Source of the DNA: Fidelibacterota bacterium
GTDB taxonomy: Bacteria; Fidelibacterota; Marinisomatia; Marinisomatales; UBA1611
NCBI GenBank assembly: GCA_028338895.1
Contig: JAOLAV010000004.1
Coordinates: 1-55,630, forward strand
Length of the DNA stretch: 55,630 bases
Direction of reading: 5' to 3'
Positions 27,077 to 43,599 of this stretch are shown here, piece by piece. A program made the position numbers and the translations under genes. Numbering within the stretch: position 1 is the first letter of the stretch; every line of letters begins with the position of its first letter. Below the pieces are notes generated by a model. It was not told the origin of the DNA, ran no database searches, and saw only the letters and a program-made list of their open reading frames with translations.

Positions 27077-28366
<1,290 letters not shown>

Positions 28367-37264: not shown

Positions 37265-38513
37265 TATTTCAGAACTTTTAGACTCTTTATATTCTTTAGA
37301 GAGATTAGGCATCAAAATGGGCCTTGAGCATACTGAGGAATTACTTAAGTCGATTGGGAACCCTCAAAAAAGATTAAAATTTATACATATTGCGGGTACA
37401 AATGGGAAAGGGTCTACGAGTGCTCATATTGAAAGTGTTTTAAGGAAAACTGGAAGAAAAGTTGGATTATATACATCTCCGCATTTAATAAATTTTAACG
37501 AGCGAATTAGAATTAATGGAGTGCCAATAACAGATTCAGGAATTGTCTCTTTTTTAGAGCCAAATTGGGCCAGTATAAATAAAATAGAATCTACATTTTT
37601 TGAAACTACAACTGCAATGGCATTTAATTACTTTGACATCAATAATGTGGATATTGCAATTATTGAAACAGGTCTTGGTGGCCGGTTAGACTCGACTAAT
37701 GTAATAAAGCCATTATTCTCTATTATTACATCTATATCATTCGATCACATCGATATTTTAGGTAACAGCCTTGAAGAAATTGCAGAAGAGAAAGCTGGAA
37801 TAATAAAAAAAGGTGTTCCACTTATCACCCTAAAACAAAATATCAAAATAGATAAGGTTCTATCCGATAAAGCAAATAATGTAAAATCAAGAATAGTTCT
37901 ATCCGACCCACCATCTAAAATAAAAATAACTTCTTCAGGCACAGAATTTTTGCAAAATAATACATTTTATAAAACTGGATTGATCGGAAAGCATCAAGCA
38001 GAGAATGCTTCTCTTGCTATAACAGCACTTAAGTTTTTTGATCCTAAAATAAATGATGAAGATATTAATAATAGTTTTATCAGGATTGTTTGGCCAGGAA
38101 GACTTCAAAAACTAGGGTTTAATATTTATTATGATGTAGCGCATAATCAAGATGGTCTTAAACTGATTATCAATTATTTAGAGCATAAATATCCCAACAA
38201 AAAAATATTTGGACTATTTTGTTTAAAAGGCGATAAGGATTTAGGTGGAATTGCAAAGATCCTTTCTAACAAATTTTCAAAATTATATATTTCGACTGAC
38301 AAGAATAATCAGTTATTAAGCGGATTATCTCTATCCAAAACACTAAAGAAAAATGGAGTGGATAGCGATGTACTTTCATCTGTAAAAGTCGGAGTCTCGA
38401 AGCTCATTGGCTTAACAAAAAAAAATAGTGTTGGGCTCATCTTTGGTACACATTATATAGCAGAAGAGGTTTTTAATGAATTTGAAATATCATTTGACAG
38501 AGGAATAATTTAG
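37251..38513 (+). CDS. folC: Folylpolyglutamate/dihydrofolate synthase
   Basis: HIAGTNGKGST, YTSPHL, ETGLGGRLDSTN, WPGRLQ, DVAHN; start uncertain (TTG 37236 or 37251). Confidence 0.95.
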   Translation: MNSSNISELLDSLYSLERLGIKMGLEHTEELLKSIGNPQKRLKFIHIAGTNGKGSTSAHIESVLRKTGRKVGLYTSPHLINFNERIRINGVPITDSGIVSFLEPNWASINKIESTFFETTTAMAFNYFDINNVDIAIIETGLGGRLDSTNVIKPLFSIITSISFDHIDILGNSLEEIAEEKAGIIKKGVPLITLKQNIKIDKVLSDKANNVKSRIVLSDPPSKIKITSSGTEFLQNNTFYKTGLIGKHQAENASLAITALKFFDPKINDEDINNSFIRIVWPGRLQKLGFNIYYDVAHNQDGLKLIINYLEHKYPNKKIFGLFCLKGDKDLGGIAKILSNKFSKLYISTDKNNQLLSGLSLSKTLKKNGVDSDVLSSVKVGVSKLIGLTKKNSVGLIFGTHYIAEEVFNEFEISFDRGII

Positions 38514-38521
38514 TGTAATTT
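38494..38521 (+). promoter_or_regulatory. Candidate rho promoter
   Basis: TTGACA-N16-TAATTT overlapping the folC end. Confidence 0.45.
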
Positions 38522-38592
38522 CAATCAGTTCCAATGTTTCCACGGGGCTTATTATTTAAATTTTCCAAAGTTTTACATAGGTTACAAAATAT

Positions 38593-39844
38593 ATGGATCT
38601 TAACGAATTACAATCATTACATATTAAAGAGCTGACTAAGCTAGCTCAAGATTTAAAGATTGAAGGCGGTGTTACAGGCCTCAATAAACAAGAATTAATT
38701 GTTAAAATATTAGAAGCCAATGCTAAAAAAGATGGTTCTTTTTCGGCAAGAGGTGTTTTAGAAGTGATGCCAGATGGTTATGGTTTTTTACGTTCGTCTG
38801 ATTTTAATTACCTCCCAGGTCCTGATGATATTTATGTAAGTCCTTCCCAAATTAAAAGATTTGGTTTAAAAACAGGGCATCTTATTTCTGGTGAGATTAG
38901 GCCTCCAAAATCAAAAGAGCGTTTTTATGCTCTATTAAAAGTATTAACAGTTAATGATAAGCCTCTAGAAGAACTAAAAAATATAATATTATTTGGCAAC
39001 TTCACTCCTCTTTACCCTGAGGAAAAATTCAATCTAGAAACGGATCCAAAAGATTTATCCATGAGAATTATGGATTTAATGTCTCCCATTGGTAAGGGGC
39101 AAAGAGGATTAATCGTCGCACAGCCAAAAAACCGGGAAAACAATACTTTTGCAAACATTAGCAAACTCTATTAGTAAAAACCATCCTGAAACAAAAAGAA
39201 TTGTTCTTCTTATTGATGAAAGACCTGAAGAAGTGACTGATATGAAGAGGAATGTTGATGCTGAAGTAATTAGTTCAACCTTTGATGAGCCGCCGGAGCG
39301 ACATGTCTCTGTAGCAGATATGGTTCTTCAAAAAGCAAAAAGAATGGTCGAATACGGAGACGACGTTGTTATTCTTCTAGATAGCATCACGCGGCTTGCA
39401 AGAGCTCATAATGCTGTTACGCCACATAGTGGTAAAATACTATCAGGTGGTGTTGATTTTAATGCTTTAAAAAAGCCAAAGCAGTTTTTTGGCGCAGCAA
39501 GAAATACTGAAGAAGCTGGAAGCCTGACTATAATATCAACGGCATTGATTGAAACCGGAAGTCGTGCAGATGAAGTTATTTTTGAAGAATTTAAAGGTAC
39601 TGGGAATATGGAGCTTGTTCTTGATAGAGGTTTGAGCGATAGAAGAATGTATCCAGCATTTAATATAATACGCTCCGGAACAAGAAAAGAAGAGCTCTTG
39701 CTTGATCGTAAAGTCTTAGGTCGTATGTGGATTCTGCGTAAACTTTTAAACGATATGAAAGTAGAAGAAGCAATGGCTTTTATGCAAGATAGAATGAAAA
39801 GGACAAAAACAAATGCAGAGTTCCTTGACACAATGAGTCAATAA
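38593..39844 (+). CDS. rho: Transcription termination factor Rho, split by +1 frameshift in A6 run 39126-39131
   Basis: [17 protein letters not shown]; removing one A restores Walker A AQPKTGKT and a 416-aa ORF; [22 protein letters not shown]. Confidence 0.96.
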
Positions 39845-39864
39845 AAATTTGAATAATTTTTTTT

Positions 39865-40947
39865 ATGGCTGATAGTTTTCCTGATATAAAAACAATTGTA
39901 GTTAGGGTTAACACGGATAAACCCGTTAGGAAAACACCTTATCAGGTCAAAGGTGTTTTTATGCGTCAGTTTCCCGATGAAGCTATAGTACCTATGTTAA
40001 ATGGGTCCTTACGAGATCAGTTTTTATATCCAAGAGTCCAAGTCAAAATTTTAAATGAGCAAATATATATTATAGGTATTAACGAAGGTGTTAGTCCCGT
40101 TCTTCAACTATCTGAAAAATTCAAAGCATTTGATTTTGGGAATATTACTTTTGAAGTCGAAAGTTTTGATATCGAAGAATCAAAAGAGCAGTTTATTCCA
40201 TCTTCTAAATTATTAAGATATCGTTTTGTTACTCCTTGGGTTGCTCTTAACCATATGACTGGAGGTAAGTATCGTTTTTTAACCAATCAAGAAAAACCAT
40301 CTTATTTAAATAAATTAATTGGTCAAAATATAGTTTTCTTAGCAAATGAAGTTGGAATCAAATTAAAAGACGATATAGTTACTCGGGTAAATGTATCGAG
40401 CCTATTTCCTAAGCCTGTTGATGATAATAAATGGGGTGCTTTTATGGGTGATTTTGAAACAAACTTCATATTACCAAATTATATTGGAGTGGGTAATGGA
40501 ATTACGAGGGGATTCGGAACAATATTTGGTGTCTTCAACCCCGATCTTTTATCTTTTAATAAAAAAGAATTGGAAGATGATACTGGTTCAAAAGAGCCTT
40601 TAGAAATAGATAAACAAGAAAATCTTGAGGTGATATCCACATTAGATGTTCCAAAACCAAAAAGAAAAAAGCGTAATAACTCAAGAAATAATCGGAAGAA
40701 ACAAAATAAAAAAATAGATTCAAAGAAAGTTCAATCAGAACAAAGCACTTCCAAAAAAAGAATAAACATAAAAAGTCAAAAGAAGAATCAAAGCTCTAAT
40801 AAAAAATATCCTAGGTCAGGAAGAGTCTTTTCAGAAGAATTTGATATTGAACCGGATACAGTTAATGTTAAACCTGATGTTACTAATGATGATATTGATC
40901 AAAAATTTAATACAGAACAGCATCACAAAAAGCAACATAAGTTTTAA
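39865..40947 (+). CDS. cas6: Stand-alone Cas6b-like RAMP protein with long charged disordered C-terminal tail
   Basis: YPRVQVK, IIGINEG, YRFVTPWVALN, FMGDFETNFILPNYIGVGNGITRGFGTI (G-rich loop GhGxxxxRGhG); no other cas genes or array in window. Confidence 0.8.
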   Translation: MADSFPDIKTIVVRVNTDKPVRKTPYQVKGVFMRQFPDEAIVPMLNGSLRDQFLYPRVQVKILNEQIYIIGINEGVSPVLQLSEKFKAFDFGNITFEVESFDIEESKEQFIPSSKLLRYRFVTPWVALNHMTGGKYRFLTNQEKPSYLNKLIGQNIVFLANEVGIKLKDDIVTRVNVSSLFPKPVDDNKWGAFMGDFETNFILPNYIGVGNGITRGFGTIFGVFNPDLLSFNKKELEDDTGSKEPLEIDKQENLEVISTLDVPKPKRKKRNNSRNNRKKQNKKIDSKKVQSEQSTSKKRINIKSQKKNQSSNKKYPRSGRVFSEEFDIEPDTVNVKPDVTNDDIDQKFNTEQHHKKQHKF

Positions 40948-42149
40948 TGACCAAATTTGCAAATAGAGTTCATAAAGTAAAACCATCTTTTACGCTGCAA
41001 ATGGCTACAATTGCAGCCGAGATGAAGTCCAAGGGACTAGATGTCATAAACTTTTCAGTTGGAGAGCCTGATTTTAACACACCCTTAAAAATCATAGAAG
41101 CTGGAAAGAAAGCAATGGATGATGGTTTTACCAAATATACTGCTGGTCCAGGGATGGTAGAATTAAGGCAAGCTATTTGTACTAAGCTTAAAAGAGAGAA
41201 TGGTCTCTCTTATGAGCCAGCTGATATCCTTGTTTCAAACGGTGAAAAGCAAAGCCTTTACAACGTTTGCCAAGCATTATTTGACGAAGGTGATGAAGTT
41301 GTTATTTTTCGACCTTATTGGGTTTCATTTCCAGAATTTGTTCGTCTTTCTGATGCAGAGCCAATTTTAGTTGACACATTACCAGAAAAAAACTTTGAGC
41401 CGGATTTTAATGATTTGAAATCTAAAATAAACTCTAAAATTAAAGGAGTAATTCTTAATTCTCCTTCAAATCCAACGGGAGGTGTTTGGAGTAAAGAGGC
41501 TATTCTTAAATTACTTAAAACTGCAAAAGAGAATAATTGGGTAGTTATTTCAGATGAGTGTTATGAGCGACTCGTCTACGATGGTGAATTTATTAGCACT
41601 GAAAAGTTAAATCGAGATTATAATATCCAAGCAGATGTTGTCACATGTATAAGCTTATCAAAAACATATGCAATGACAGGTTGGAGGATTGGATATGCTG
41701 CAGGTCCCCGAGAAATAATTAAAGCAATGTCAAAAATTCAAGGCCAGGCAACTTCGTGCGCAAATTCAATTGGGCAAAAAGCAGCAATTGAAGCTCTCTT
41801 AGGAGATCAAAGCTGTGTGGAAGAAATGAAAGAGGCATTTAAAGAAAGACGAGACTTAGTTGTAGCCTTATTAAATGATATTCCAAATATATCTTGTCGT
41901 GTACCTGGAGGTGCATTTTATGCTTTTCCTGACTTTAGTTATTATTTGGGAATGTCTGCGAGCGGTAAGTTATTGAAAGATACTTTTGATATTTCTGAGT
42001 ATATTCTAAGCTCAGCTGAAGTAGTAACTGTTCCAGGAGATGGCTTTGGAGCTCCTGGGCATATTAGGTTCTCTTATGCTACTAGTACTGAAATAATTAG
42101 AAAAGGTATAAAGCGGGTAAAACTTGTTTTGAAAAATTTAAATAGTTAG
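40947..42149 (+). CDS. aspC: PLP-dependent aspartate aminotransferase (class I/II)
   Basis: GEPDF, NSPSNPTG, SDECY, SLSKTYAMTGWRIGY. Confidence 0.92.
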   Translation: MTKFANRVHKVKPSFTLQMATIAAEMKSKGLDVINFSVGEPDFNTPLKIIEAGKKAMDDGFTKYTAGPGMVELRQAICTKLKRENGLSYEPADILVSNGEKQSLYNVCQALFDEGDEVVIFRPYWVSFPEFVRLSDAEPILVDTLPEKNFEPDFNDLKSKINSKIKGVILNSPSNPTGGVWSKEAILKLLKTAKENNWVVISDECYERLVYDGEFISTEKLNRDYNIQADVVTCISLSKTYAMTGWRIGYAAGPREIIKAMSKIQGQATSCANSIGQKAAIEALLGDQSCVEEMKEAFKERRDLVVALLNDIPNISCRVPGGAFYAFPDFSYYLGMSASGKLLKDTFDISEYILSSAEVVTVPGDGFGAPGHIRFSYATSTEIIRKGIKRVKLVLKNLNS

Positions 42150-42158
42150 AGGTAAATA

Positions 42159-42407
42159 ATGAAAAAAGATGTACATCCAAAAAATTATAGATTAGTTGTT
42201 TTTAAAGATACTTCATGTGAACATACTTTTTTGACTCGATCCACTGTTGAGACAAAAGATACTATTAATTGGGATGATGGTAATGAATATCCATTATATA
42301 AAATTGAAATTTCTAATAAATCACATCCATTTTTTACAGGGAAGCAAAATCTTGTTGATACTGCAGGTCGTATAGAAAAATTTAATAGAAAATACGGTAA
42401 AAAATAA
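42159..42407 (+). CDS. rpmE2: 50S ribosomal protein L31 type B
   Basis: [17 protein letters not shown]...SHPFFTGKQ...GRIEKF; no Cys4 motif. Confidence 0.96.
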
Positions 42408-42424
42408 GCTTACTTATCTTTTAA

Positions 42425-42466
42425 CAGCTCTTTATAAGATCAATGCATAAAGAGCTGAATTTTATT
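42425..42466 (+). terminator. Stem-loop after L31 (probable terminator)
   Basis: CAGCTCTTTAT...ATAAAGAGCTG 11-bp stem followed by AATTTTATT. Confidence 0.65.
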
Positions 42467-42531
42467 ATATAAATACACTAAATATTCTTTAACGAAAGAT
42501 AGATATTTAGTTCAGTCTCTGAGGTGATAGT

Positions 42532-43599
42532 TTGAAAGAAAAATTAATTGCTATAGTTGATAAATATAATCATTTAGCTGAACAAATGGCTGACCCTCAA
42601 ATTTTTGGAAATCAAGAAAAGCTCACTCCAATTGCTAAGGAACACAGCTCACTTAGTGATATTGTCTCAGTTGGTAAAAGATATATAAATATTTTAGATC
42701 AGATTGATGACGACAAAGAGATGATGGATGGAGAAGATCAAGAATTAAAACAAATAGCTGAAGAAGAAATAAGTGGCTTAGAAGATGAGCTAATTGAAAT
42801 AGAAAAAGATTTAAAAGTTTTATTGTTACCAAAAAATCCAAATGATAATAAAAATTTAATTTTAGAGATTCGTGCTGGAACTGGTGGTGATGAGGCGGCT
42901 CTTTTTGCCTCTGATCTGTTTCGGATTTATATGCGCTATTCTGAAAGAAAAAAATGGGTTTTCGAAGTTTTAGATACTTCACAAACTGGAATTGGAGGAC
43001 TAAAAGAAGCAACTATTTCAATAAAAGGTTCTGGAGCTTTTGGTTTATTAAAGTACGAGAGTGGAGTTCATAGAGTGCAGAGAGTACCAAAAACAGAAAC
43101 AAATGGTCGAGTGCATACATCTGCTGCAACAATTGCTATATTACCTGAAGCCGAAGATATTGATGTAAATATTAATGAAACTGACTTAAAGATTGATACC
43201 TACCGTGCAAGTGGAGCTGGGGGGCAACATGTAAATAAAACAGAATCTGCAATCCGAATAACACATTTGCCGACAGGTTTAGTTGTCACTTGCCAAGATC
43301 AATCATCTCAACATAAAAATCGTGCAGCAGCATTAAAAGTTCTCAAATCTCGATTACTAGCAGCTGAAGAAGAAAAAGCTGCTTCTAAAAGAGCCGCTGA
43401 ACGTAGGAGCCTCGTTTCAACAGGAGATAGGTCCGCAAAAATTAGAACTTATAATTTCCCGCAAGGTCGTGTAACAGACCATCGAATTAATTTTACATCT
43501 TACAGATTGAATGAAATACGCGATGGTGATATTTCCGAACTAATAGAAAAATTAAAAATAGCTGAACAGCAGGAGATAATGGCTGCTGATTTAGTATGA
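42532..43599 (+). CDS. prfA: Peptide chain release factor 1
   Basis: PKT specificity motif, GGQ; TTG start after GAGGTG. Confidence 0.98.

Follow-up and report, generated by a model that had tools for sequence, protein, structure and literature searches.

We describe here cas6L, a Cas6b-like gene that directly follows rho in a 55,630-nucleotide stretch of DNA (positions 1 to 55,630 of contig JAOLAV010000004.1, assembly GCA_028338895.1; hereafter the window) from a bacterium of the marine phylum Fidelibacterota (SAR406). The encoded protein is a true structural relative of Cas6b from type I-B clustered regularly interspaced short palindromic repeat (CRISPR) systems, has lost the residues on which catalysis by its closest solved relative depends, and is found behind rho in almost all genomes that carry it. 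We hypothesize, with even expectations of being right or wrong, that a Cas6b left CRISPR, has since been inherited behind rho and now plays a CRISPR-independent, RNA-binding role tied to Rho.

An initial annotation of the window had classed the protein as Cas6b-type, and Pfam, the PDB and AlphaFold2 combined with Foldseek all bear this out. The Pfam family Cas6b_N (PF17955) matches residues 7-108 with 46.3 bits (cut-off 25) and Cas6b_C (PF17262) residues 114-220 with 78.4 bits (cut-off 39.4). A phmmer search against the PDB returned one distinct chain sequence, that of Methanococcus maripaludis Cas6b (MmCas6b; 4z7k, 4z7l), which aligns with residues 27-221 at an E-value of 3.4e-23, and an NCBIfam search of the protein gave nothing meaningful. 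The AlphaFold2 model of residues 1-220, built on a 30-row alignment, reaches a mean predicted local distance difference test value (pLDDT) of 93.3 and a predicted template modelling score (pTM) of 0.88, and shows the double ferredoxin fold of the repeat-associated mysterious proteins (RAMPs). Its top Foldseek match in the PDB is 4z7k_A (E-value 1.2e-16, template modelling score (TM) 0.77); the five best matches are Cas6b chains, and type IV Cas6/Csf5, Pyrococcus Cas6 and other Cas6 proteins come next. In the ESM Atlas, the nearest neighbours are canonical Cas6b clusters only, from Cloacimonadota and Bacteroidota. The two-domain RAMP architecture is accompanied by the C-terminal glycine-rich loop typical of Cas6b, with the pattern GxGxxxxRGxG, and this loop lies exactly where the initial annotation had placed it (Table 1). 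The glycine-rich loop of Cas6 proteins holds RNA.

The active site, on the other hand, has changed. In the HMMER alignment with MmCas6b, H38, H40 and Y47 fall opposite P43, L45 and F53 of the Cas6L protein; neither the catalytic histidine pair of Cas6b nor the tyrosine that goes with it is therefore present, and the segment VPMLNG, which had been noted as free of histidine, indeed places P43-M44-L45 opposite H38-N39-H40. In MmCas6b, the H38A/H40A double mutant is nearly devoid of cleavage and Y47A is reduced in it (PMC3479195; papers identified by PMC number are cited for those parts of their text that were available). In Haloferax Cas6b, two glycines of the glycine-rich loop are required for normal CRISPR RNA (crRNA) levels (PMC6546412). 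The histidine-asparagine-histidine (HNH) triplet occurs in all 42 canonical Cas6b sequences and in none of the 30 rho-linked ones, one of which (locus L048) carries a displaced RHEH. A column-by-column comparison of the 30 rho-linked with 39 canonical sequences revealed that the invariants of the canonical class replaced in the rho-linked class are the HNH triplet, the tyrosine and the equivalents of G111, N132, K186 and K211, the last being the lysine within the glycine-rich loop. Common to both classes are the columns YP-Q-K, Y-F-PW-L, N155, F-G-F-N-P and the loop glycines G210, G216 and G218. The scaffold that would hold RNA is thus preserved, and the changes affect the known set of catalytic residues together with some likely contact residues.

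To follow the gene through the phylum, we searched 151 evenly sampled genomes from 25 families with a profile of the rho-linked class. Close homologues of the protein bear the source names Candidatus Marinimicrobia or Neomarinimicrobiota, which NCBI files under Fidelibacterota. The matches in the sample fall into two classes. The high-scoring class (235-341 bits) comprises 43 genomes and a split copy in genome G077, giving 44 carriers with the window genome included; the low-scoring class (104-160 bits), which is the canonical Cas6b, occupies 15 places in 14 genomes, and both classes occur together in G051, G054 and G062. The RNA-binding domain of Rho was found in 144 of the 151 genomes. In 42 of the 44 carriers, cas6L lies about 0.9-1.6 kb downstream of this domain on the same contig and strand, and in the remaining two (G139, G078) each of the two genes lies at the end of a contig of its own. 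The 15 canonical copies, by comparison, are all on contigs other than that of rho. At all 38 loci fetched around rho-linked copies in other genomes the gene comes right after rho on the same strand, the gap measuring 9-114 nt with a median of 40 at 29 related loci. The window's order keeps the whole block amiC-murI-folC-rho-cas6L-aspC-L31-prfA-prmC-ubiA-dnaE, whereas distant families (L029-L031, L052) have other neighbours and preserve the rho-cas6L pair alone.

The canonical class is found in a different setting. All 13 proteins encoded at the 13 loci fetched for this class contain HNH. The second copy of G062 (L033) heads a full operon, cas6b-cas8b-cas7-cas5-cas3-cas1-cas2-cas4, which was examined gene by gene, and among the 73 open reading frames (ORFs) of the other 12 loci Pfam recognizes Cas8b, Cas7 and Cas3 seven times each, Cas1 and Cas4 five times each and Cas2 twice. 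Arrays of 37-nt repeats starting GTTTCAATCC adjoin two of the 13 loci (L034, L040). The L040 array has about 30 repeats, a further canonical type I-B locus (L146) has a short array whose repeats start alike, and no array was seen in the fetched part of L033. In family f28, cas6b adjoins dnaG in three loci.

A maximum-likelihood tree of 72 sequences (IQ-TREE quick search, unrooted) places the 30 rho-linked sequences on one side of a single branch with a Shimodaira-Hasegawa-like approximate likelihood ratio (SH-aLRT) of 99. Nesting within this group follows kinship, with the window's order (97) inside its class (97) and the other classes beyond. Canonical Cas6b proteins from Fidelibacterota are interspersed with those of KSB1, Cloacimonadota, Balneolaceae and Desulfosarcina, and their label needs six changes on the tree. 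This topology fits one recruitment followed by vertical descent, as opposed to the horizontally mobile CRISPR loci. The ratio of non-synonymous to synonymous substitution rates (dN/dS) is 0.04-0.10 for the Cas6 domain (4 of 10 scored pairs with finite dS) and 0.12-0.55 for the tail that follows it in the window's order (7 of 10 scored pairs), the values being few because dS is saturated in most pairs; these ratios indicate that cas6L is under purifying selection. Outside the phylum, we inspected 80 rho loci collected via Rho alignment from Acidobacteriota, Ignavibacteriota, Bacteroidota, KSB1, Gemmatimonadota, Latescibacterota, Omnitrophota and others. No cas6L match was found in 79 of them, eight of which hold less than 1 kb downstream of rho. 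The only locus with cas6L right after rho, L063, encodes a Rho 83% identical to the query and presumably belongs to Fidelibacterota.

Most carriers of cas6L show no sign of a CRISPR system. Cas1 (PF01867) was detected in 42 and RAMPs (PF03787) in 23 of the 151 genomes. Ten of the 44 carriers have Cas1, and all seven carriers with RAMPs are among these ten; the other 34, 30 of which are at least 90% complete, have neither. Since 32 of 107 non-carriers have Cas1 as well, its presence is not positively associated with cas6L. The gene thus does not behave as a CRISPR-associated one, being located beside rho in genomes that mostly lack Cas1 and RAMPs. Within the window's order, three of 22 sampled carriers have Cas1 (G037, G178, G025). 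The locus in G025 is of type I-B and ends with its contig inside cas7; cas6b and cas8b are missing from it. In G037 and G178 (L147, L148), a Cas9-sized ORF (1029 and 1064 aa) is accompanied by cas1, a 109-aa ORF, possibly cas2 (no tblastn match), and a short array with repeats starting GTTGTGG; these loci look like type II systems in SAR406 relatives.

The window genome itself (G000) was searched for a CRISPR system by several routes. Tandem Repeats Finder reported a single unrelated repeat and no array in the 55.6-kb window, the Cas1 and RAMP family searches of G000 gave no match, and in tblastn with eight type I-B Cas proteins cas6L was the sole match. The statement of the initial annotation that the window has no array or other cas gene therefore holds and extends to the available part of G000, although the genome is only 55% complete and its negative result is weak on its own. 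The two 37-nt type I-B repeats of the phylum have one and two matches in G000 (at most 13 mismatches), compared to 0-4 for shuffled repeats. Three array candidates in G000 were rejected. A k-mer candidate on contig C23 (about 27670-27990) proved by six-frame translation to be a coding frame of 21-aa repeats: five 63-nt tandem units in a minus-strand gene encode repeats of leucine-rich type (NQLTSFDVSANTALTEL). Those on C31 (51-nt units, spacer-less) and C3 were judged by eye to be tandem repeats.

From these sequences and models we infer RNA binding, absence of cutting and a link to the activity of Rho, and we propose the following course of events. Early in the history of Fidelibacterota, a type I-B Cas6b would have left CRISPR on a single occasion and given rise to cas6L, which would have been inherited vertically ever since as the gene directly downstream of rho. 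Because the Cas6b fold and its glycine-rich loop have been kept and the histidine pair, the tyrosine and other canonical invariants lost, the protein is most likely an RNA binder with a new, CRISPR-independent target. It would be expressed with rho and take part in RNA metabolism related to Rho; it might, for instance, mark or shield particular transcripts, possibly via contact with Rho itself. The disordered basic tail that seems to have been gained in the window's order is probably a docking arm. A bolder version, which we regard as doubtful, would make Cas6L the first CRISPR protein to serve as a cofactor of transcription termination: by recognizing a specific RNA element and docking onto Rho it would direct Rho to particular transcripts or withhold it from them, with the tail helping in the window's order.

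Several observations weigh against our hypothesis, the distribution of the gene being one of them. cas6L is dispensable and no universal housekeeping gene: it is present in 15 of the 25 sampled families and was not found in the other ten (f12, f17, f18, f20, f23, f25, f27, f28, f30, f32), nor in most of f24 and f26. Family f12 belongs to the same order as the window, and its seven genomes, of about 1 Mb and 95-99% complete, all lack a match. At ten loci without cas6L, rho is followed directly by aspC-L31-prfA in five (L053, L054, L056, L061, L062); at L057, L31 lies 211 nt past rho with only a 70-aa ORF between them, and other genes come after rho in the remaining four. A six-frame hmmsearch of these ten loci with the class profile detected no remnant of cas6L at E-values up to 10. 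The reading of the initial annotation needs correction on this point. In G077 (98% complete; L145, 1103-1672), the rho-linked copy is frameshifted past about residue 175, with the glycine-rich loop in another frame, and is either a pseudogene or an assembly error. Furthermore, searches of Rfam (no match in the window at gathering thresholds), with type I-B repeats and for hairpins found no RNA target of Cas6L.

The evidence from RNA libraries and from complex prediction also has to be read with its limits. Of the sequence words sampled from positions 38500-42400, at least half are present in each of 13 metatranscriptome runs, and contigs of four runs from four studies were aligned to the stretch, gaps in the coverage of a single run not being taken as absence. 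A contig of 4015 nt covers 39569-42400 with 17 differences and extends from the 3' end of rho through cas6L and aspC into L31; three other contigs bridge the rho-cas6L junction, and one bridges that of cas6L and aspC. Because contigs from RNA libraries can hold DNA, they do not prove a single transcript. An extra T within cas6L, at window position 40274, appears in one low-depth contig (run X5, depth 6.5) but in none of the three other runs, and is probably an error or a rare variant.

For the complex, we predicted Rho together with Cas6L of a relative (L003) from alignments of 28 rows each. The predicted score is 0.47 (0.41, 0.49 and 0.47 in individual runs), compared to 0.01 for the best of three controls, and it falls in a band where wrong passes outnumber correct ones unless the pairing was already likely a priori. 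Of 80 solved complexes, 58 reach the pass mark, as do two of 110 mismatched pairs; at scores of 0.60 or below it is reached by only seven of the 80 solved complexes and by both passing mismatches, and these counts are only a rough calibration because our own alignments were used here. The runs agree in at least 51% of the predicted contacts, with a partner pLDDT of at least 64. No solved Rho-Cas6 complex was encountered in PDB sequence and fold searches with the Cas6L domain, so that a memorised prediction is unlikely. We take this weakly supported model as a hint that Cas6L touches Rho.

Could Cas6L still be an endoribonuclease? With arginine, tyrosine or lysine in place of histidine, it might process RNAs of housekeeping function, for example a small RNA, the precursor of a tRNA or rRNA, or a polycistronic mRNA; we consider this possibility rather unlikely. 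The missing histidines are no proof of lost cutting, because Cas6 active sites are plastic: Sso1437 of Sulfolobus solfataricus, a Cas6 that also has no such histidine, still cleaves via a network of basic residues (PMC3652601), and single H38A or H40A mutants of MmCas6b remain active (PMC3479195). In addition, R50, Y55, P56 and R57, near the former active site, are invariant in a 23-row alignment. In the wider 30-row class, however, R50 drops to 87% and R57 to below 85%, and all three key residues of the closest solved relative are replaced along with further invariants, including the lysine of the glycine-rich loop. From the initial reading, a rho-fixed, CRISPR-independent Cas6b fold devoid of the histidine pair is retained; the example of Sso1437 leaves "non-cutting" a supposition, and hairpin binding and action in termination are likewise putative.

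The link to Rho may be challenged separately. Cas6L could be an RNA- or protein-binding factor in a process unrelated to Rho, for instance translation or ribosome assembly, with its place beside rho reflecting a very stable operon; this, too, strikes us as improbable. The block from amiC to dnaE is syntenic through much of the phylum and conserved across the window's order, and the linkage to rho may therefore partly be plain operon conservation. Moreover, translational coupling joins cas6L to aspC, and L31 and prfA come further downstream. It is where the block is broken (L029-L031, L052) that the persistence of the rho-cas6L pair argues for a connection with Rho, as does, weakly, a predicted complex whose controls do not exceed 0.01. 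By far the least probable alternative is that cas6L is a normal crRNA-processing Cas6 serving distant arrays in trans. Stand-alone Cas6 enzymes that supply distant effector complexes are known (PMC5965381), ten carriers have Cas1, and G025 has a type I-B locus for which no cas6b was found in the assembly; since this locus is broken and has lost cas8b as well, it is uninformative on the point. Service in trans is contradicted by the 34 carriers without Cas1 and RAMPs, by a Cas1 frequency no higher in carriers than in non-carriers, by the HNH-containing Cas6b that genomes with a complete type I-B operon bring themselves, and by the failure to find an array or a sequence resembling type I-B repeats in the 55% of G000 that is assembled. 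Recruitment into a CRISPR-independent role tied to Rho thus remains the explanation that we prefer.

The features of the locus are compiled in Table 1.

Table 1. Features of cas6L and its surroundings in the window.
Feature	Position	Strand	Basis or remark
rho, as two overlapping ORFs (38593-39174, 39149-39844)	38593-39844	+	Extra A in A-run; Walker A codons, near 39126
rho-cas6L spacer, 20 nt, no terminator-like site	39845-39864	+	
cas6L, rho-linked Cas6b-like gene, 360 aa	39865-40947	+	ORF list, Pfam, phmmer against PDB
Predicted double ferredoxin (RAMP) domain, Cas6b-like, residues 1-220	39865-40524	+	AlphaFold2 model and Foldseek
P43-M44-L45, facing catalytic H38-N39-H40 of MmCas6b	39991-39999	+	HMMER alignment
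Glycine-rich loop G208-VGNGITRGF-G218	40486-40518	+	G210, G216 and G218 invariant in rho-linked and canonical classes
Lys/Asn/Ser-rich tail, residues 223-360, mostly predicted disordered	40531-40944	+	Alignment, AlphaFold2 pLDDT
Conserved tail island D261-VPKPKRK-K269	40645-40671	+	Alignment; pLDDT 71-76 over residues 251-270
Conserved C-terminal motif D-x-KFN-x3-(Y/H)HKKQH-x-F, residues 345-360	40897-40944	+	Alignment of 17 long forms
Aminotransferase gene, called aspC by likeness	40947-42149	+	Start overlaps cas6L stop

The arrangement read in the initial annotation is confirmed in the points examined: cas6L starts 20 nt past the stop of rho (39844), its TAA shares one base with the ATG of the aminotransferase gene in the sequence TAATG (40945-40949), and L31, prfA, prmC, a UbiA-like gene and dnaE lie further downstream. 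No terminator-like sites were detected between rho, cas6L and aspC. The window rho, which matches Rho_RNA_bind (PF07497) at 38749-38967, is split by one extra A in the run CCAAAAAACC (39120-39135), where four relatives have five A; the initial annotation does not mention this split. Because the relatives lack the extra base, and base 39126 is also missing at full depth from RNA-library contigs of three studies, the split is most likely an assembly error of the window genome rather than a broken rho. Eleven relatives share a 5-bp hairpin (GTTCC...GGGGC) with a T-rich run behind it in the interval that separates folC from rho (38528-38548 in the window). Three of its five pairs are changed on both sides, a weak covariation, and the element probably terminates folC or belongs to the rho leader. 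In many relatives (L018, L020, L054 and others), L31 and prfA are separated by an additional gene of about 320 aa (about 1 kb), which is absent from the corresponding interval of the window (42407-42532). A candidate fusion of cas6L with aspC, suggested by open frames of 716 aa in G117 and 711 aa in G102, was dismissed, the genes being separate in G117.

The tail after residue 222 is confined to the window's order, where it measures 70-160 aa; rho-linked proteins of other lineages comprise 219-263 aa and are tail-less. In the model, pLDDT falls below 50 at residues 239-247 and 291-343. Four short motifs are conserved along the tail: FNPxxFSFD, (D/E)(V/I)P(K/R)(P/S)(K/R)R, SEEFDIE and the C-terminal KFNxxx(Y/H)HKKQHxF.

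Our analysis suggests that a part of CRISPR has been recycled for ordinary RNA work. Purifying selection has apparently maintained a single Cas6 next to a core gene of transcription for a very long time, in ocean bacteria that are abundant and for the most part have no CRISPR. If Cas6L binds defined RNAs, it would provide a natural example of an RNA-recognition module that changed both its function and its target; should it also cooperate with Rho, it would represent a new kind of termination control; and if it is indeed a termination cofactor, a whole phylum would have gained sequence-specific control of Rho from an immune gene. The case lends itself to experiments: the protein is small, and a structure has been solved for its nearest relative. 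Natural "knock-outs" are available in lineages where aspC comes directly after rho, and natural controls in genomes with both Cas6b classes.

How does Cas6L compare with known systems? With M. maripaludis Cas6b it shares both Pfam domains, the fold (TM 0.77), the glycine-rich loop and the motifs YP-Q-K, (T/S)PW-AL and F-G-F-x2-N-x3-P; in contrast to it, Cas6L has no equivalents of H38, H40 and Y47, is encoded outside any cas operon or array, is inherited with rho and has acquired a tail in one order. The canonical Cas6b proteins of Fidelibacterota have the same two Pfam domains and are 24-35% identical to the rho-linked class, but they keep HNH, sit in type I-B operons and mix with other phyla in the tree. 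Rho has several protein partners, namely NusG, Rof/YaeO, Psu and Hfq. To these Cas6L bears no relation in sequence or fold, and a small modulator of Rho is at most a possible analogy. Sso1437 likewise combines a Cas6 fold with the absence of the "essential" histidine (PMC3652601), but belongs to a different Cas6 subfamily and continues to process crRNA within a CRISPR system. Our searches of the literature on Cas6 outside CRISPR, on orphan Cas6 and on CRISPR or Rho in Marinimicrobia, as far as the texts were available, found no description of cas6L, and the accessible sections of a 2022 review of exaptation (Koonin and Makarova, PMC8730458) name no solo Cas6 beside a core transcription gene. 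The exapted CRISPR modules described there, such as Tn7-linked systems and Streptomyces cas5-8 with a STAND NTPase, are, like Cas6L, Cas proteins outside adaptive immunity; they differ from it in being multi-gene effectors that act in defence or transposition.

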